Source of the DNA: a virus
IMG/VR virus record: IMGVR_UViG_3300036852_000372
Location: 1 to 42,020 of that record
DNA: 42,020 bases
Reading direction: 5' to 3' (one strand)
Position numbers and translations under genes: made by a program. Positions 3,383 to 42,020 of this stretch are shown piece by piece (the stretch's first letter is position 1; each line of letters starts with the position of its first letter). The notes beneath the pieces were generated by a model. That model searched no databases, was not told the origin of the DNA, and worked only from the letters and a program-made list of their open reading frames with translations.

Positions 3383-3889
3383 TTAGAAATTACCCGGAGC
3401 CACTTGAAAACAAGTGTATCCAGCCCTGCGCCACGCATCAACTACGCGCTGGCGATCCTCGAAAATACACAAGACCTTCGCCTTAATGCCGAGCTCTTCT
3501 ACCCAGCGCAGCTTCAACACATCATCTTGTGTCCTGTCTTCAATGCCACGAAGCATTAATTTGTCATAGACTACTCCTTGTTCGTGAAGCCACTTTCTGG
3601 TGACGTCTCTTGTACTTTCGGACCTTCCACTGAGAATGTAAATCTTGTGCCATCGGGCGAGATCGTTACAGACTTTGATGATGTTGGGTTTAGGGAGATC
3701 GTTACCCGCCGCCGCGAAATAGCGATCCCAATCTCGTCTTTTTCCACATCTACAAATCCCTGCTTGGTGGTAAATTTCATCACACCCAATAGCGTGTAGA
3801 GGATGTAAATAGTGTGCTCTGTGTCCGTCATCTGCTAACGTCCCGTCGAGGTCGAAGATGCAGATTTCCTCTCCACCCATTCTAAGCAT
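3383..3889 (-). CDS. HAD-superfamily phosphatase (polynucleotide/nucleotide 3'- or 5'-phosphatase-like)
   Basis: HAD motif I is IFDLDGTLADD. ILSGR(S) is motif II-like and FEDRQRVVDAW is motif III/IV-like. RBS GGAG lies upstream of ATG 3889. Confidence 0.75.
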   Translation of the reverse strand: MLRMGGEEICIFDLDGTLADDGHRAHYLHPLHAIGCDEIYHQAGICRCGKRRDWDRYFAAAGNDLPKPNIIKVCNDLARWHKIYILSGRSESTRDVTRKWLHEQGVVYDKLMLRGIEDRTQDDVLKLRWVEELGIKAKVLCIFEDRQRVVDAWRRAGYTCFQVAPGNF

Positions 3890-4827
3890 GCCTTTCTCCA
3901 GTCAGTTGCCTGTATTTTATTGATAAAGTGCTCATTCTTACTGCCCCCGTCCTTCCGGTGGTACCATGCCAGATACATCGGCACCGCCACCTCGTTCATC
4001 CACCGGGTGCGGTACCGACTCCCGGTTGTGTGGACGAAGTCATAACAGTCCATGAGGAGATCCTTCATCTCCTCTTCCCCAAGAATTAGAAGTGGGTAGG
4101 GAGAAACGACTCCATCTCGGTAAGGGTCCACCGGAGACCTCGTATTGAGCATCTCCTTGATCTTGGGAAGCGCCGTGTAGACGTGTGCGTTATTGGACAT
4201 AACCATGTACGACCCCACCCCAAGACCTGCCCCGTGAGCGATCAATTCTTGAAGAAGAGTCATGTGAACCACATTAGCTCCGAGCATGCCCCAGATGATA
4301 TCGTTGCTTCGGTTGCACACGGTCATGTGAAGCGCATCGGATTCCACACGGAAGTAGATGTGAGTATTGCAAGGAAGATCCCGGTGTGGCTCCAGATCAA
4401 CTCGCGGGTCCCACATCCCCAGTACAGCTCTTCGGGTTGTCCGATCCTTCTTAAGTTGATCAGCAACTGCAACGATTTGATCCACGCCGTTAAAATGATT
4501 AATCCAGCGATGGCCGTAAGCCCCGTGGACAATACCGTCTGGCTCAGCATATTCGTGATACCTCTTGTTGAATTGTGCGATCCACTCCACTTTGTTTGAC
4601 CCACTCATCATCCAGATGAACTCCATCAGATGAAAGAATGGATTCGCATCGCGAATTGGGTCAAAGATCACCCGCTCCCTGGGATCGATGATCTCCAGGA
4701 AGAATGGGTCCAGGAAAGACAGGACTGGCCCATTCCTGCTCTCCTGTTCCTCCCCTTCCAAGCTCAACCGAATCATCACTTCTGGATAGATGCTTGGAAG
4801 ATTCTCCTCGGTCACCTCAATTGCCAT
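3835..4827 (-). CDS. Thymidylate synthase (ThyA) family enzyme; dUMP methylase or hydroxymethylase
   Basis: ThyA landmarks are EFIWMMSGS, YGHRW, DQI..V..QLKKD..TRRAVLGMWD, catalytic LPCNTH, CNRSNDIIWG, GAN (Asn retained, uracil-type) and NAHVY. Confidence 0.85.
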   Translation of the reverse strand: MAIEVTEENLPSIYPEVMIRLSLEGEEQESRNGPVLSFLDPFFLEIIDPRERVIFDPIRDANPFFHLMEFIWMMSGSNKVEWIAQFNKRYHEYAEPDGIVHGAYGHRWINHFNGVDQIVAVADQLKKDRTTRRAVLGMWDPRVDLEPHRDLPCNTHIYFRVESDALHMTVCNRSNDIIWGMLGANVVHMTLLQELIAHGAGLGVGSYMVMSNNAHVYTALPKIKEMLNTRSPVDPYRDGVVSPYPLLILGEEEMKDLLMDCYDFVHTTGSRYRTRWMNEVAVPMYLAWYHRKDGGSKNEHFINKIQATDWRKACLEWVERKSASSTSTGR

Positions 4828-4994
4828 TAGATTTTCTCCTCAAAGGCCTTAAAATCCTTTAATTTCTCCTTGAATAATGTAAGATCATATTGACTCACAG
4901 TGGATAACTTCTTCCACCCCCACCATGTCTTGATATAGACTTTATAGTAGAGATAATCCCTGTTGAAAACAGGTATGAATTTAAAGTCCTGCAT
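4827..4994 (-). CDS. Unlisted 55-aa ORF (MQDFKFIPVFNRDYLYYKVYIKTWWGWKK...FEEKI)
   Basis: Found by hand translation because it falls below the track cutoff. ATG 4994 has AAGAGG upstream. Its TAA shares one base with the ThyA-homologue ATG (TAATG), and it fills an otherwise empty 150-nt gap. Confidence 0.45.
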   Translation of the reverse strand: MQDFKFIPVFNRDYLYYKVYIKTWWGWKKLSTVSQYDLTLFKEKLKDFKAFEEKI

Positions 4995-5844
4995 AATTCC
5001 TCTTTGATTTTCCGGTACCTGTCGTCACCCGGCAGTATTTGTCAAATTCGCACAGACAGTTCTGGAGGTCCTGGTTGTCCACCGGAGTTACTCCCGGAGG
5101 CCAGTGCTGATCAACCCATGTGCGAAGGTTGTTGAAGTAATGCATGAAATTTGATTCTGTGACCCCCTTTGGTCCACCTGAAAAGATCCAACTTAATCCA
5201 CGGAGACTGCCCGGCCCCGGAGTGACGAAGAAGGGTTTGTCAAACGCCTTGCTCAAAGGGTGCCCCGGAGTGTTCTTTAAGTCAGCTACAATCTGCCCAG
5301 CCAGAAAACTTCCGACTCCCTCGATCTCCTGCAGAGCCTCGGCGGCTAGGGTGCAGCTACCGCCCCGGGCTGGGTGCCCCGGCCGCTCGAGGGCTCGGAA
5401 TGCAGCGCCGAGCACGTTATCACACAGGTACCGGGCCTTGGGCATAGGTATGCCATGAGTCGTGATAACGTAGGCTCCACCCCAGACTTTTAACCCGTCG
5501 GTCGCTCGCTGCTCGAGATACTCTAGCAGTTCGTCCGGATTATGATCTTCTAAGTACCCGCAATCTTCTAGAGTCGCTACATTATTAATGAAGCGACTAA
5601 AGATGATATTATACTCAAACATACGATCACCAACGCGACGTGAATAAAACGATCGAATCCATCGCGTAACTTTGTCGTCTTCCCGGTGTACGTTACAGAA
5701 GTACGTCTTCTGGAATATGGGGTCGGAAGTCCAAGGTTTATCACGATTAGCTTCCTTCTTTATCCGGATTGACTCCCGTTCTGCCACCCAATACATAAGC
5801 AGATCCTGCGGCGTATAATCTCTTCCATTGGCATGTATAATCAT
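4981..5844 (-). CDS. aGPT-Pplase / 5-HMUDK-helical-domain-like DNA base hypermodification protein (HhH glycosylase-related)
   Basis: YWVAERESIRIKKEANRDKPWTSDPIFQKTYFCNVHREDDKVTRWI, the HhH-like GVGSFLAGQIVADLK, and LCEFDKYCRVTTGTGKSKRNY. This is recalled family resemblance and was not searched. RBS GAGGA precedes ATG 5844. Confidence 0.6.
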   Translation of the reverse strand: MIIHANGRDYTPQDLLMYWVAERESIRIKKEANRDKPWTSDPIFQKTYFCNVHREDDKVTRWIRSFYSRRVGDRMFEYNIIFSRFINNVATLEDCGYLEDHNPDELLEYLEQRATDGLKVWGGAYVITTHGIPMPKARYLCDNVLGAAFRALERPGHPARGGSCTLAAEALQEIEGVGSFLAGQIVADLKNTPGHPLSKAFDKPFFVTPGPGSLRGLSWIFSGGPKGVTESNFMHYFNNLRTWVDQHWPPGVTPVDNQDLQNCLCEFDKYCRVTTGTGKSKRNYAGL

Positions 5845-6583
5845 AGCGTACCCCGTCCTCATTTGCTAGCCACTTATCTTTTGTATTCCGCGCGACGACC
5901 TTGACGTAATCAGGGAAGCGAGCAGATAGATACTCAACCGCCTTCGTTTGCATGTCGCTTGTGCGATAGATTGAGCAACCTCCCGGGGCTTGGCAAGGCC
6001 CATGGTCTTGGAAATGGGTTGTGATAATCTTGTTTCCCTGCCCACGTGCCAAGAGTGTACAATTGAGTACCACGTCAGCCAGAATTGGAAATTGATCCAC
6101 TTTAACTTTTCCAATTAACCTCCTGTTAATTCCTTGGATGCAGATAATTCTACCGTTGTCAACGTACGGGGGCTTCGTGTTCTGCCCCATCTGTCTGGGG
6201 TGGACTCCGACCAGTGCTGTGTCTTCGAGGAGCTCTTCCATGTAATCGAAGAGTACCCCAGTTTCTTCAACATCTTCGATAGTTCTAAGACTTGGTCTTC
6301 CATCGACGAGTACTCGTCTGGAAAAGACAAGATCATCGTCAAGAATGCAGGCTTTTTCATTTGTATCATAGCCCCCAAACGCAGATGGGAATCCGTCTAG
6401 GATGTATTGGAATTTTTCACTGTAGTTAGTAATTCGTTCTGGCACAGCATACGTTTGATGTACATGCTGTATAGCTTCTTCAGCTGGACAGACCAGCCAC
6501 GTTTTATCTTTCCACCGTTGGGGCAGACGCCCCAACGTATACTGTCTTCCGACGCGTCCACGAGTCATAATATACAGGTTCAT
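5747..6583 (-). CDS. GT-A-like nucleotide-sugar transferase fold candidate (function uncertain)
   Basis: ATG 6583 with GGAGG upstream; the track start at 6625 lies inside a terminator. The first strand is NLYIMTRGR and the acidic ILDDDLVF sits about 90 aa in, like a DxD motif. There is no Walker A motif. Confidence 0.4.
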   Translation of the reverse strand: MNLYIMTRGRVGRQYTLGRLPQRWKDKTWLVCPAEEAIQHVHQTYAVPERITNYSEKFQYILDGFPSAFGGYDTNEKACILDDDLVFSRRVLVDGRPSLRTIEDVEETGVLFDYMEELLEDTALVGVHPRQMGQNTKPPYVDNGRIICIQGINRRLIGKVKVDQFPILADVVLNCTLLARGQGNKIITTHFQDHGPCQAPGGCSIYRTSDMQTKAVEYLSARFPDYVKVVARNTKDKWLANEDGVRYDYTCQWKRLYAAGSAYVLGGRTGVNPDKEGS

Positions 6584-17865: not shown

Positions 17866-17971
17866 GGCCGCAGCTTGGCCAGTTCCATGTCAGCCATTGG
17901 CCGAGCGGGCAAAAGATCTATAGGCCTAAGATGACGTGGTATTAACGCGTGAACTTGAACTGTTGATCCGT

Positions 17972-18005
17972 AAGGCCGAAGGCACGCTCCTTCGGCCTTT
18001 CGTTA
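17972..18005 (+). terminator. Rho-independent terminator of the primase operon
   Basis: Perfect 11-bp stem AAGGCCGAAGG/CCTTCGGCCTT with a 6-nt loop, followed by TTCGTT. Confidence 0.7.
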
Positions 18006-18100
18006 TAGGCCCCCAGGTCATCTTGAAGACGATTGGATTATCGATGACGACTCTGAAATGCTGGGCCAAAGATCGTCACGAGTAGATAGGCGACGAGTCG

Positions 18101-18168
18101 GGATTATGTTAAATCCAGATTATGTTAAGTGGCACGAAACTTGCTAGCCCAAAGACACTTATGTTAAA
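18101..18168. repeat. Left cluster of the (G)ATTATGTTAA motif (3 copies)
   Basis: GGATTATGTTAAATCC (18101..18116), GATTATGTTAA (18118..18128) and CTTATGTTAAA (18158..18168). Confidence 0.85.
18130..18145 (+). promoter_or_regulatory. Sigma54-type -24/-12 promoter element 1
   Basis: TGGCACGAAACTTGCT is exactly TGGCAC-N5-TTGC, with the G after GGCAC and the T after TTGC. Confidence 0.6.
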
Positions 18169-18175
18169 CGTCCAT

Positions 18176-18191
18176 TGGCACGGAACTTGCT
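18176..18191 (+). promoter_or_regulatory. Sigma54-type -24/-12 promoter element 2
   Basis: (T)TGGCACGGAACTTGCT matches the extended consensus YTGGCACGR-N3-TTGCW at every specified position. It is part of a 26-bp imperfect direct repeat with element 1. Confidence 0.6.
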
Positions 18192-18193
18192 AG

Positions 18194-18209
18194 GCAAAAG
18201 ACGTGCCAG
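18194..18209 (-). promoter_or_regulatory. Sigma54-type -24/-12 element 3 on the opposite strand
   Basis: The minus strand reads CTGGCACGTCTTTTGC. Together with element 2 it forms a 33-bp imperfect palindrome. Confidence 0.4.
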
Positions 18210-18335
18210 CTGGGCTGTCATAATACAAAACTATTTTAGGCTGCTTAAGGGTTACCCCTATGGTAAGGCTGGCGCACTGGGCGCATAGTAGCAGCGTACC
18301 AATACGGTACTTTTCGTTAAGGCAAGGGTATACAC

Positions 18336-18689
18336 ATGGCAAAGGCAAACAAGGGTGGCAACGCCACCAAAGGCACCGGCGCACAGGCCCCGGCGGCTAC
18401 CACGGTGCAGGCTGCAACGGTGGTGCAGGCTGGCAAACCCGCGCAGCCGGGCGTGCTGCAGGTAAAGCCGGGCGTGGCGCTGCGTGGCGCGCGGGCCAGC
18501 TGGTACGCAGTGTTACTGCAGTACAACGGCAAGCCGGTTGCGGAATTTTTGGCGGCCACGGCGGCAAACCCCCCCAGCCTGCCCAAAAGCGGTGTTGCCG
18601 AAAAGCCCACGGGCTGGCTGGGCTGGTTTACCCGCACGGGCGTGGCGCAGGTGGTGCAGCCCGGTACCGAATCGGTGCAGGGTAGCTAA
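18336..18689 (+). CDS. GC-rich gene for an Ala/Gly/Lys-rich protein (117 aa), paralogue of 7263..7655
   Basis: Third codon positions are almost all G/C (gcg, ccg, ctg, cag, ggc), unlike the rest of the genome. It shares the C-terminal RGAR..WY..GK.V.E...P.GWL..F...G.V motif. It has its own terminator. Confidence 0.75.
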   Translation: MAKANKGGNATKGTGAQAPAATTVQAATVVQAGKPAQPGVLQVKPGVALRGARASWYAVLLQYNGKPVAEFLAATAANPPSLPKSGVAEKPTGWLGWFTRTGVAQVVQPGTESVQGS

Positions 18690-18711
18690 GAACCCGTAAG
18701 GGTTCCACCTA

Positions 18712-18742
18712 GGGGCGCAGCCTAAGGGTTGCGCCCCTTTTT
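18712..18742 (+). terminator. Rho-independent terminator of the GC-rich gene
   Basis: GGGGCGCA/TGCGCCCC stem followed by TTTTT. It is preceded by a smaller hairpin, GAACCC-GTAA-GGGTTC (18690..18705). Confidence 0.8.
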
Positions 18743-18751
18743 AGTGCGTAT

Positions 18752-18941
18752 GGATTTAACATAATACTTCTGCAACAGTAGCGCAACAGTCTGCAACATA
18801 ATACTGTTGCGGGGATTATGTTAAAAAACATTATGTTACATTTCGCAACACTTGCAACACTTAACATAACGTACGTGTATTATGTTATAGATAATTTGTA
18901 GGTGTGCAAAAGTTACTGTTGCGAGTGTTTTGTAGTGTTGC
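18752..18941. repeat. AT-rich array of short direct and inverted repeats (iteron/operator-like)
   Basis: ATTATGTTA/TAACATAAT copies lie at 18756, 18795, 18814, 18830, 18861 and 18880. GCAACAGT/ACTGTTGC copies lie at 18772, 18783, 18803 and 18915. GCAACACTT occurs in tandem x2 at 18845..18862, with inverted AGTGTTGC at 18934. Confidence 0.85.
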
Positions 18942-19023
18942 AGACTAACCCAACGCACCCATTTACGCCCGATCTCGCGGACAATCAGCCTACTTCCGAC
19001 TCATCCCTCCGGGAATAGGGAGG

Positions 19024-40323: not shown

Positions 40324-42020
40324 ATGCCTCGTAACAGTAGCGGAACATACAGCCTCCCGGCAGGCAATCCGGTCGTAACCGGGACAACGATTAGCACCGT
40401 CTGGGCTAATACGACCCTGTCCGATATCGGAACCGCCATGACTGACTCCCTCAGTCGGTCTGGGGATGGTGGTATGCTCGCTCCTCTGGAGTTGGTGGCT
40501 GGCGCGATCGGCGCCCCCGCGCTGACGTGGGGTGCGGAAACTACCTCTGGACTTTATCGAGCTGGAGCAGGGGACTTCAGATTTGCAATAGCTGGAGTAG
40601 ATGTTTGGTCCGTAGGTTCTTCTGGTTCTTATTCCCTTCGAATTCTTGCAGGGGATGGAACTGTAGCTGCTCCTGGAATTGCGTTTAATTCAGATCAAGA
40701 TACTGGGTTCTACCGCATAGGGGCAAATGAACTTCGCATGGCCGTCGGCGGCGCTGCGATGGCCATATTTAGTTCTGCAGTTGCTCAATTCAATGCAACA
40801 CAGACTTTAGTCGGAGATGGTCTGGTTGGTACTCCGGGTATCTCTTTCTCTAATGATCCAGATACGGGCATATATCGTATCGGAGCAAATGAACTTCGTA
40901 TTGCGGTTGGTGGGGCCGCGATGGTTGTCCTCAATTCCTCCGTAGCACAGTTTAATTCGTCACAAGTTCTCGTTAATGACGGTCTCGTAGGAACTCCCGG
41001 ACTTTCATTCTTCAATGATCCGGATACGGGCATGTATCGTCCAGGAGCGGACACCATTCGTTTCGCCACGGGAGGAGTCCTGCGCCTCGACATGTCCTCT
41101 GGAGGATTCAAACCCACGACTGTGATCCTTCCCACGGTGGATGGAGCTGTGGGCGCCCCCCTGTATTCGTTTGATAATGACCCGGATACCGGCATCTACC
41201 GCCCCGGAGCAGATGAAATTCGTATTGCGACGGGGGGTGTACTCCGTCTGGCGTTGTCTTCTGGAGGGTTAAAGTCGGCCGTCGTAAACTTACCTTTGAT
41301 TGACGGTACAGCGGGAGCTCCGGTTTACTCATTTGACAATGACTCCAACACTGGAGTATTCCGTGCTGGTGCCGATGATATGAGCTTCAGCGCCGGTGGC
41401 ACGACTCGTATGTCTGTCAACGGCACATCAGTCATTGTCAACACGGTACCATTTCACGTTCAGGATGGATCAGTCGGTGCTGCGTCTGTTTCTTTCTTCA
41501 ATGATCCCGATACGGGCCTCTATCGTCTGAACGCGAATGAGCTACGAATCACCACTGGTGGTTCGGCGATGATGATTGTTTCTTCTGCCGCAACCCAGAC
41601 AAATTCAACGCAATTCTTAACTGGCGACGGGGCTGTCGGAACTCCTTCTCACTCGTTTGCAAATGATCCTGACACTGGCTTTTTCCGTGATACGGCCAAT
41701 CAGATCGCCATCGCACTTGCGGGGGCTGCGGCTGGGCAGATAGCGCAGGGTAGCTTCACGATGACCCTTACTGGATTCACGGCTGCCCCAACTCCTTCTG
41801 CAACATGGCAGCGAATTGGAAATCTAGTTATAATCAGAGTGCCACAATTCGCCTCAACAAGTAATGGTGTAGGATTTACCTGCACGAATATTCCTGCTAT
41901 TATCCAGCCATCCACACCAACCTATGCTTGGATCGGCTCAGGCCAGGATAACAGTGTTCAGTCCAATACGGTTAGCTGTTTAATCAACGGTGCAACTATG
42001 ACTTTCCAAATTGGAAATGG
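40324..42020 (+). CDS. Tail fibre protein (N-terminal 565 aa; continues at 1..209)
   Basis: AAGGTG RBS. The N-terminus SGTYSLPAGNPVVTGTTISTVWANTTLSDIGTAMTDSLSRSGDGGM is a common phage tail-fibre anchor motif. No stop occurs before the window end. Hand-translated in full. Confidence 0.85.
   Translation, partial: MPRNSSGTYSLPAGNPVVTGTTISTVWANTTLSDIGTAMTDSLSRSGDGGMLAPLELVAGAIGAPALTWGAETTSGLYRAGAGDFRFAIAGVDVWSVGSSGSYSLRILAGDGTVAAPGIAFNSDQDTGFYRIGANELRMAVGGAAMAIFSSAVAQFNATQTLVGDGLVGTPGISFSNDPDTGIYRIGANELRIAVGGAAMVVLNSSVAQFNSSQVLVNDGLVGTPGLSFFNDPDTGMYRPGADTIRFATGGVLRLDMSSGGFKPTTVILPTVDGAVGAPLYSFDNDPDTGIYRPGADEIRIATGGVLRLALSSGGLKSAVVNLPLIDGTAGAPVYSFDNDSNTGVFRAGADDMSFSAGGTTRMSVNGTSVIVNTVPFHVQDGSVGAASVSFFNDPDTGLYRLNANELRITTGGSAMMIVSSAATQTNSTQFLTGDGAVGTPSHSFANDPDTGFFRDTANQIAIALAGAAAGQIAQGSFTMTLTGFTAAPTPSATWQRIGNLVIIRVPQFASTSNGVGFTCTNIPAIIQPSTPTYAWIGSGQDNSVQSNTVSCLINGATMTFQIGN
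40498..41751 (+). repeat. Eight in-frame tandem repeats (about 50-55 aa each) inside the tail fibre
   Basis: The recurring block is (G)DG.VG.P..SF.NDPDTG.YR.GA.E.R...GG.......S. It recurs at approximately aa 59, 110, 164, 218, 272, 325, 380 and 433. Confidence 0.85.
41894..42020. repeat. Second copy of the 127-bp terminal redundancy (identical to 1..127)
   Basis: Exact identity, read base by base. Confidence 0.95.

Follow-up and report, generated by a model that had tools for sequence, protein, structure and literature searches.

Clustered sigma-54-type boxes upstream of a conserved phage gene: candidate docking sites for a host sigma factor

The 42,020-nt phage genome held in IMG/VR as record IMGVR_UViG_3300036852_000372 (positions 1 to 42,020, the whole stretch analysed and called the window in what follows) carries, within about 80 nt of one intergenic gap, three copies of a sequence resembling the -24/-12 promoter element of sigma-54 (RpoN). 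The locus raises the question of which factor would read these boxes and what their reading would do for the phage. Phage use of sigma-54, normally a host-side and signal-gated factor, is barely documented, reports on phage YuA being about the sole example that we found. The three boxes, here called P1, P2 and P3, had been placed by an earlier note on this DNA, and our direct reading of the sequence agrees with it on their coordinates and strands. They are listed below with the larger repeats that they form.

18130 to 18145, plus strand: sigma-54 box P1, TGGCACGAAACTTGCT; exact consensus, unpaired, directed toward the gene at 18336; predicted start at about 18156.
18176 to 18191, plus strand: sigma-54 box P2, TGGCACGGAACTTGCT; exact consensus, left arm of a face-to-face pair; predicted start at about 18202.
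18194 to 18209, minus strand: sigma-54 box P3, CTGGCACGTCTTTTGC; exact consensus, right arm of the pair, pointing leftward; predicted start at about 18182 on the minus strand.
18176 to 18208, both strands: face-to-face double box of 33 bp, TGGCAC-N5-TTGC, a 3-nt gap, GCAA-N5-GTGCCA.
18130 to 18156 and 18176 to 18202, plus strand: direct repeat, 2 x 27 nt, found by repeat search (89% identity, 46-nt spacing).

The boxes and their recurrence in viral genomes

The spacing proper to sigma-54, GG-N10-GC within TGGCAC-N5-TTGC, is exact at all three window sites. A scan of both strands of the 42-kb genome for TGGCACG-N4-TTGC with up to one mismatch returned these three sites only, all of them exact and all within 18130-18208, against 0.76 matches at up to one mismatch in shuffled sequence; exact matches would be expected by chance, on a naive estimate, about 0.02 times per genome. 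The uniqueness that the earlier note had proposed thus holds to within one mismatch, and its remark that the other TGGCAC hexamers lack a proper TTGC is borne out by the next-best GG-N10-GC positions (33764 and 31605), which agree with the consensus at only 10 of 12 positions. The 33-bp imperfect palindrome was confirmed at 18176-18208, where it reads TGGCACG-GAAC-TTGC / TAG / GCAA-AAGA-CGTGCCA, and the direct repeat is present as well, measuring 27 nt rather than the 26 bp first given; its P1 copy has lost the inverted partner. Because P1, P2 and P3 are related by duplication and inversion, they do not represent independent events, and it is the conservation of the GG and GC blocks in related phages which argues that the cluster is not due to chance. 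P1 lies 206 nt and P2 160 nt upstream of the gene at 18336-18689, which encodes a protein of 117 amino acids (aa), and both are co-oriented with it; the plus-strand boxes do, as had been said, point at the downstream gene.

Conservation was followed in loci retrieved for comparison (designated by L-numbers), among which 26 with a homologous gene were fetched and 21 are distinct. Boxes of the same type stand upstream of the homologous gene in 12 of these 21, usually as face-to-face pairs (TGGCAC-N5-TTGC, a gap of 3-4 nt, GCAA-N5-GTGCCA) and sometimes several consecutively. In an alignment of six relatives with a mean column identity of 56%, the P1 bases TGGCA (18130-18134) and TGC (18142-18144) are invariant while the intervening bases and flanks vary, and the P1 counterpart retains a minus-strand partner in four of the six. 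A counterpart of P2 precedes the homologous gene by 98-206 nt in L001, L003, L008, L014, L019, L021 and L022, and the P3 arm, TGGCACGTCTTTTGC, is also present in L001, L008 and L022. Unpaired boxes upstream of the homologous gene (counted at window 18130, L008 2769, L001 839, L003 1284, L014 790, L006 2829 and L018 436) are all on the gene's strand.

The palindrome is no local oddity, as hundreds of viral contigs unrelated to the window carry face-to-face pairs or head-to-tail arrays of sigma-54 boxes. In IMG/VR, 104 stretches match exactly the face-to-face pair with N5 and a gap of 3-4 nt; their contigs range from 34% to 68% G+C and from 5 to 230 kb. The same palindrome with an inner spacing of N4 or N6 gave 0 matches in IMG/VR, so that the internal estimate of chance occurrence is zero. 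Face-to-face pairs with a gap of 5-14 nt account for at least 120 further stretches and head-to-tail pairs with a gap of 3-14 nt for at least 120, and the cluster-bearing contigs overall span 28-68% G+C and 5-480 kb. Among the matches listed, the gap between face-to-face arms is 3, 4, 5, 6 or 7 nt in 22, 55, 33, 26 and 34 distinct pairs, respectively, and rarely longer, and head-to-tail gaps are most commonly 11-12 nt, giving a period of about 26-27 nt in arrays of up to ten boxes. The gaps between adjacent face-to-face pairs in arrays cluster at 10 and 20 bp (L037, L040, L041, L110, L301, L313 and others), and such regular spacing is suggestive of nucleoprotein assembly of a higher order.

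In 596 Gb of bacterial genomes only 14 stretches match the paired form, an enrichment in phages that is approximate, the size of IMG/VR not being stated. Eight of the 14 are copies of a Leptospira repeat, and most of these eight, together with two matches in metagenome-assembled genomes (MAGs), have arms that are fully or nearly complementary and a T at the seventh position, which marks them as a different object. At least two of the remaining bacterial matches look like phage DNA, namely an array in Methylovulum and a phage-type arm in a Sphingomonadales MAG. Sequence comparison therefore places the window boxes, in our reading, in a widespread and phage-specific class of clustered sigma-54 boxes that often stand at operon heads, including those of terminase operons. 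Our literature searches turned up no account of phage sigma-54 boxes in pairs or arrays, and the clusters are apparently undescribed as a phage cis-element. The Leptospira repeat itself (L134, L137, L138, L140, L143, L144 and L146) is a multi-copy G+C-rich repeat in genomes of 34% G+C; its hairpin, TGGCAC(T/G)...TTGC...GCAA...GTGCCA, has fully complementary arms in L143 and partly complementary arms in the other copies, and it is probably a structured RNA or mobile element unrelated to the phage boxes.

The position of the clusters relative to genes is most regular near terminase genes. Wherever a related terminase gene is present within 3.5 kb (34 loci), the palindrome is without exception upstream of it, at a distance of 0.9-2.7 kb and in the gene's orientation; many of these palindromes stand between divergent genes, and many belong to arrays of two to five. 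For head-to-tail arrays, the downstream open reading frame (ORF) is co-oriented in a ratio of 36:18 and the upstream ORF divergent in a ratio of 39:18, on ORF calls that are crude in metagenomic loci.

Cultured phages carry the element as well: the Pakpunaviruses of Pseudomonas aeruginosa (K5, K8, C2-10_Ab1 and others) and their distant relatives EM, P. putida phage KoPa-4 and P. plecoglossicida phage SYP. In this group the face-to-face pair (K5 80419-80452) occupies a long intergenic gap, and its right arm is invariant with variable N5 bases. For the K5 pair, starts are predicted at about 80445 (plus strand) and 80426 (minus strand), and K5 has a lone box at 80267 as well. Pseudomonas hosts have RpoN, on which their pili and flagella depend. 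As K5, K8, EM and KoPa-4 carry a conserved copy and their hosts offer good rpoN genetics, the function of the boxes is directly testable. Directly downstream of the palindrome in K5 (L131 3000-3090), L264, L265 and L266 is a CT-rich non-coding block of about 90 nt, conserved across the P. aeruginosa, P. putida and P. plecoglossicida phages, with several CCTCC-like motifs; it matches no Rfam family and may function as a leader or small RNA. In PAK_P3 (L133), a phage whose transcription starts have been published (PMC10914365), two sigma-54-like boxes face away from each other in the gp80-gp81 gap, at 50798-50812 on the minus strand and 50946-50960 on the plus strand.

Which factor would read the boxes

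TGGCAC-N5-7-TTGCT is the sigma-54 consensus (PMC12316311), and the phage boxes follow known sigma-54 promoters beyond the bases that define them. We compared the five unconstrained spacer positions of 164 phage half-sites with those of 168 sigma-54 promoters (S2 Table of PMC12316311; mostly RegPrecise sites from Desulfovibrio and Desulfomicrobium, plus E. coli) and obtained r = 0.92, a value reached by 0 of 2000 permutations; with the flanks included the correlation is r = 0.79. The shared preferences at the five positions are, in order, G over A; almost never T; T; T; and C or T, rarely G. Together with the strict N5 spacing and the GG and GC blocks that are invariant in relatives, these preferences sustain the assignment of P1, P2 and P3 as sigma-54-type -24/-12 elements.

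The breadth of the phages involved points in the same direction. No protein cluster is common to more than one-third of the palindrome loci, the most shared being terminase-like (34 of 105 loci), and this, with the wide range in G+C, argues for a universally conserved host reader. The variable arm gap and the abundance of head-to-tail arrays speak against a rigid dimer touching both arms, so the other dimeric protein that had been left open as a reader is disfavoured both by the 3-7 nt variation in gap and by the lack of a common neighbour protein. Host sigma-54 thus appears to be the most economical reader of the boxes. The rpoN gene is absent from Actinomycetota and most Cyanobacteria (PMC12316311).

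We consider it probable, on this sequence evidence, that P1, P2 and P3 are docking sites for the host sigma-54 holoenzyme and act as activator-gated promoters. The holoenzyme would sit on the boxes as a silent closed complex, firing of which would need an ATP-driven activator. Rightward firing from P1 or P2 would yield an mRNA of gene 18336-18689 with a leader of 135-180 nt, adding a conditional input to the gene's proximal sigma-70-like promoter, and leftward firing from P3 would yield a short non-coding or antisense transcript. As the -12 elements of P2 and P3 are 3 nt apart, only one arm could be occupied at a time. The activator would be either a host enhancer-binding protein or an unrecognised phage factor; that expression of the gene is wired to a host enhancer-binding protein, as the earlier note supposed, is pure conjecture.

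Several observations weigh against the boxes being such promoters. As had been reported for the window, no enhancer-binding ATPase is to be seen: domain scans and a motif search found neither a Sigma54_activat domain nor a GAFTGA motif in any frame of the window or in 930 kb around the other palindromes, and neither an enhancer-binding ATPase nor a sigma-54 gene was found among the roughly 60 ORFs of the window or in the same 930 kb. P3 points at nothing coding. The two palindrome arms are equally good, whichever of them is nearer the terminase gene, and across the wider viral set the unpaired boxes are oriented without bias (10:13). Nine of the 21 distinct related loci have no sigma-54 box, which, with the conserved proximal -10 element described below, means that the boxes are not the gene's sole promoter; they would instead be an extra, dispensable input to gene 18336. 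We infer that neighbouring holoenzymes would be too crowded to bind jointly, whether the boxes repeat every 26-27 nt or the arms are offset by 15 nt plus the gap (about 18-22 nt), and the 10- and 20-bp gaps and tight packing of arrays look more like a nucleoprotein array than like independent promoters. Since the phage encodes a 5-hydroxymethyldeoxyuridine (5-hmdU) DNA kinase and a thymidylate-synthase homologue, the thymines of the boxes may moreover be hypermodified, and their recognition could be affected.

The main rival to a promoter function is that binding itself is the function. The sites would then titrate a small sigma-54 pool and shut off the host's sigma-54 responses, or, in a roadblock version, parked closed complexes would insulate neighbouring transcription units. 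The extra sites in the arrays inspected are near-perfect consensus, though the search left them free, and the spacers are T-rich, a composition that favours tight sigma-54 binding. The clusters are dense, come with no activator that we could find and are nearly absent from bacterial chromosomes, orientation seems irrelevant for pairs and for unpaired boxes, and the window cluster lies directly after the terminator of the upstream operon. The sigma-54 holoenzyme is reported to occupy many sites that are transcriptionally inactive (PMC4591121). We nevertheless regard a sink or roadblock as unlikely, if a serious contender: we found no precedent among phages for DNA that acts as a sponge of a sigma factor, sites packed every 26-27 nt would partly be wasted if holoenzyme binds, three sites in the window are few, and the promoter-like polarity of head-to-tail arrays and the palindromes upstream of terminase operons are better suited to transcription. 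Somewhat less likely still is an operator for a phage DNA-binding protein whose half-site resembles, or derives from that of, the sigma-54 DNA-binding domain, the candidate being the winged-helix-like product of gene 18336 acting on its own gene. Dyad symmetry, array gaps clustering at 10 and 20 bp, the position of the boxes directly upstream of a probable DNA-binding protein gene and the lack of an encoded activator would all fit an operator, and a protein weakly similar to sigma-54 by HHpred is on record from a Pectobacterium phage (PMC7693777). An arm gap that varies from 3 to 7 nt is, however, hard to fit to a rigid dimer, and head-to-tail arrays are about as common as pairs. The adjacent protein family occurs in only 2 of about 100 other palindrome loci and lacks the boxes in 9 of its own 21, and no other neighbour takes its place, the one most often shared, in about one-third of the palindrome loci, resembling the large terminase. 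The spacer preferences, too, copy those of sigma-54 promoters, the window has no Pfam match to the sigma-54 DNA-binding domain, and a profile of the 117-aa protein showed no similarity to a manually entered sequence of the C-terminal region of E. coli sigma-54.

We give little credence to a packaging site (pac or cos, bound by the small terminase) or to part of a replication origin. The placement of palindromes 0.9-2.7 kb upstream of the large-terminase gene in 34 loci would agree with the former, and the position of the window cluster less than 600 nt from a TGCAACA iteron/A+T-rich block (18740-18985) with the latter, but the terminase gene of the window is 4.5 kb off, past a minus-strand operon, and the K5 palindrome lies between genes for hypothetical proteins and an SprT-like protein with no terminase within 2.5 kb on either side. 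The specificities of terminases and initiators also diverge fast, while this motif is constant from 28% to 68% G+C, and either function would leave the match to sigma-54 spacing and spacer preferences unexplained. An RNA or DNA hairpin (a terminator, cruciform or processing site), or a chance match, is scarcely tenable. The 33-bp imperfect palindrome is intergenic, and some bacterial matches, among them a Leptospira repeat, are perfect hairpins; in the window, however, GGAAC faces GTCTT, no T-run follows 18208 and no Rfam family matches. Comparison of the N5 segments in 77 distinct viral palindromes showed no more agreement between arms than expected from composition, and with arms that are not complementary the hairpin reading was rejected; chance is excluded by the uniqueness of the exact sites and by the restriction to N5 spacing.

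A promoter function for P1, P2 and P3 remains the reading that we prefer. Only tentatively do we suggest that dense clusters of phage sigma-54 boxes (face-to-face at 3-7 nt, or in arrays of about 26 nt) are a widespread and undescribed cis-element by which phages lacking a polymerase of their own capture host sigma-54. Capture might take two forms: the clusters could be tightly gated promoters at operon heads, fired by an activator not recognisable as an enhancer-binding protein, or they could form a DNA sink that withdraws sigma-54 from the host regulon during infection. If the clusters do bind sigma-54, several hundred phage contigs ranging from 28% to 68% G+C would engage the host transcription machinery in the same way, through a geometry (mirror-image, or tandem and overlapping) that is essentially absent from bacteria and has no recognisable activator. 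Either a new route of sigma-54 activation or a DNA-based anti-sigma strategy would then follow, and both would be new phage biology. For annotation, the clusters offer an easily scanned marker of operon-head regulatory regions in uncultured phage genomes.

Comparison with known systems brings out what is shared and what is particular to the phage clusters. The bacterial sigma-54 promoters (glnAp2, pspA and the RegPrecise/EcoCyc set, PMC12316311) have the same consensus, GG-N10-GC spacing and spacer preferences as the window and phage boxes. They are single and oriented, however, and are served by an upstream activator site and a cognate ATPase, whereas the phage boxes are consensus-perfect, clustered as pairs at 3-7 nt or arrays of about 26 nt, and without a recognisable activator. 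The lytic Pseudomonas phage YuA is reported to use host sigma-54-like promoters (Ceyssens et al. 2008, as cited in PMC10914365). It has no RNA polymerase of its own, and it shares with the window a thymidylate-synthase homologue, which in YuA carries the annotation putative dUMP hydroxymethylase. The GenBank record of YuA (NC_010116) lists three "-24/-12" promoter features, which are weak matches (at least 2 mismatches), unpaired and inside the structural gene region; the YuA promoters are not homologous to the window cluster.

Further parallels concern sites that are bound in unusual arrangements. In a study of sigma-54 binding sites in E. coli, many sites are reportedly untied in position or orientation to gene starts. 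The non-productive and intragenic holoenzyme sites of E. coli combine stable binding with a lack of transcription (PMC4591121), but they are scattered singly in the chromosome, unlike the dense, symmetric and intergenic phage clusters. The window also resembles the lambda operators OR and OL in having several partly symmetric sites in a regulatory intergenic region adjoining the gene for a small DNA-binding protein. Lambda OR and OL have a fixed half-site spacing and a sequence private to one immunity group, whereas the phage boxes have a variable gap and are common to unrelated phages. Symmetric bidirectional sigma-70 promoters, in which one short DNA segment promotes transcription in both directions, are said to have been described by Warman et al. 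in 2021. Those promoters have a common -10 hexamer from which the starts diverge; in the window two complete -24/-12 promoters would converge and overlap, so that each predicted start falls inside the -24 box of the other.

The adjacent gene, its leader and the flanking repeats

The boxes are located in a 480-nt gap between the terminator of a replication operon and the 117-codon gene. The other elements in and around this gap are as follows.

17969 to 18002, plus strand: terminator-like hairpin, 14-nt arms, 93% complementary, followed by TTTCGTT; closes a plus-strand operon (primase and small genes).
18102 to 18167, plus strand: three TTATGTTAA repeats (starts at 18104, 18120 and 18159) that adjoin P1 and P2.
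18284 to 18289, plus strand: sigma-70-like -10 hexamer CATAGT; A18285 and T18289 are invariant in the six-relative alignment.
18296 to 18310, plus strand: small G+C-rich leader hairpin GTACC-aatac-GGTAC, then TTTTCGTT; begins 6 nt after the -10-like hexamer.
18336 to 18689, plus strand: gene for the 117-aa protein; conserved, with a disordered basic N-terminus and a winged-helix-like core.
18711 to 18738, plus strand: intrinsic terminator of gene 18336; 12-bp stem with 9 G-C pairs, then TTTTT.

Gene 18336, which the earlier note called GC-rich, is not a foreign cassette: it belongs to a conserved family with 61 homologues, all metagenomic and several of them on contigs of about 42 kb, and its G+C richness probably reflects an Ala/Gly/Pro-rich protein. 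No homologue was found in 185,579 bacterial genomes. Sequence searches of Pfam, PHROGs and PDB with the 117-aa protein were empty. In an AlphaFold model of it, residues 40-107 form an ordered core made up of a strand, three helices and a second strand, and Foldseek structure searches returned only weak winged-helix-like matches.

The -10-like hexamer stands about 50 nt before the ATG of the gene, and relatives have hexamers of TAGTAT, TATAGT or TAATAT type in the same place, including relatives without sigma-54 boxes. A leader hairpin of 5-8 bp occupies the same position in 20 of the 21 related loci, with stems that differ and covary. Hexamer and hairpin together look like a sigma-70-type promoter whose transcript opens with a 5' stem-loop, and gene 18336 very probably has a proximal promoter of this type, to judge from the alignment. 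A "promoter swap", in which a sigma-70 promoter would replace the boxes in box-less relatives, was also considered, and a simple scan gave weak and inconsistent matches.

Six exact copies of the motif TTATGTTAA are present in the window, where 0.17 would be expected; they fall between 18104 and 18869 and are confined to the intergenic regions on either side of gene 18336 (18104-18167 and 18756-18869) and occur in both orientations. Nearly every related locus has variants of it (TTATGTAA, TTATGACAG), in many cases 1-2 nt before a sigma-54 box, and motif and box are often seen together as TTATGTWA-N2-TGGCAC. We take TTATGTTAA to be a candidate accessory motif across this family of related loci. 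Its complement contains CATAAT. Farther upstream, about 130-150 nt before P2, a block GAAGACGA-TTGGATTATCGAT (window 18026-18050) is conserved in L001, L008 and L020, and more distant relatives have, in its place, GAAGACGA-like repeats and low-complexity "gactccga" repeats; the block could be an activator or initiator site. Beyond the gene, at 18740-18985, is an origin-like block of 39% G+C with TGCAACA/TGTTGCA iterons in both orientations around an A+T-rich core, and in relatives a block of the same type, or one whose iterons are GTAACCGA/GGTTACA, precedes the gene rather than following it.

The source phage

The window is a complete phage genome in a circular assembly. An identical 127-nt direct repeat at 1-127 and 41894-42020 forms a terminal overlap and is the assembly overlap of a circular or terminally redundant genome. 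Neither megablast nor blastn found a DNA match to the box region among GenBank phages, which makes this a new phage. Among its recognisable genes, those for replication and DNA metabolism encode a family A DNA polymerase, a VapE-type primase/helicase and an SNF2 helicase, and others encode a thymidylate-synthase homologue, a 5-hmdU DNA kinase, a terminase large subunit and a P22-like portal. Identity is about 43% between its portal and the portals of Myxococcus phages Mx8 and Mx9, and about 41% between its large terminase and the one from a Methylophilales phage. Scans of roughly 60 window ORFs revealed no RNA polymerase, sigma factor or enhancer-binding ATPase, no tRNA gene was found in the window, and Rfam searches of the window region and of phage K5, at gathering and relaxed thresholds, returned nothing relevant.

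One relative of about 42 kb, L022, encodes at 5361-6098 (minus strand) a 245-aa protein with a sigma-70 region-4 domain, which heads a leftward operon; the window has no homologue of it. On the minus strand of the window, at 3383-5862, the thymidylate-synthase homologue, the 5-hmdU DNA kinase and an HAD/PNKP-type phosphatase are grouped together, which suggests that thymidine in the DNA of this phage is hypermodified, as it is in phages of the YuA/M6 type.

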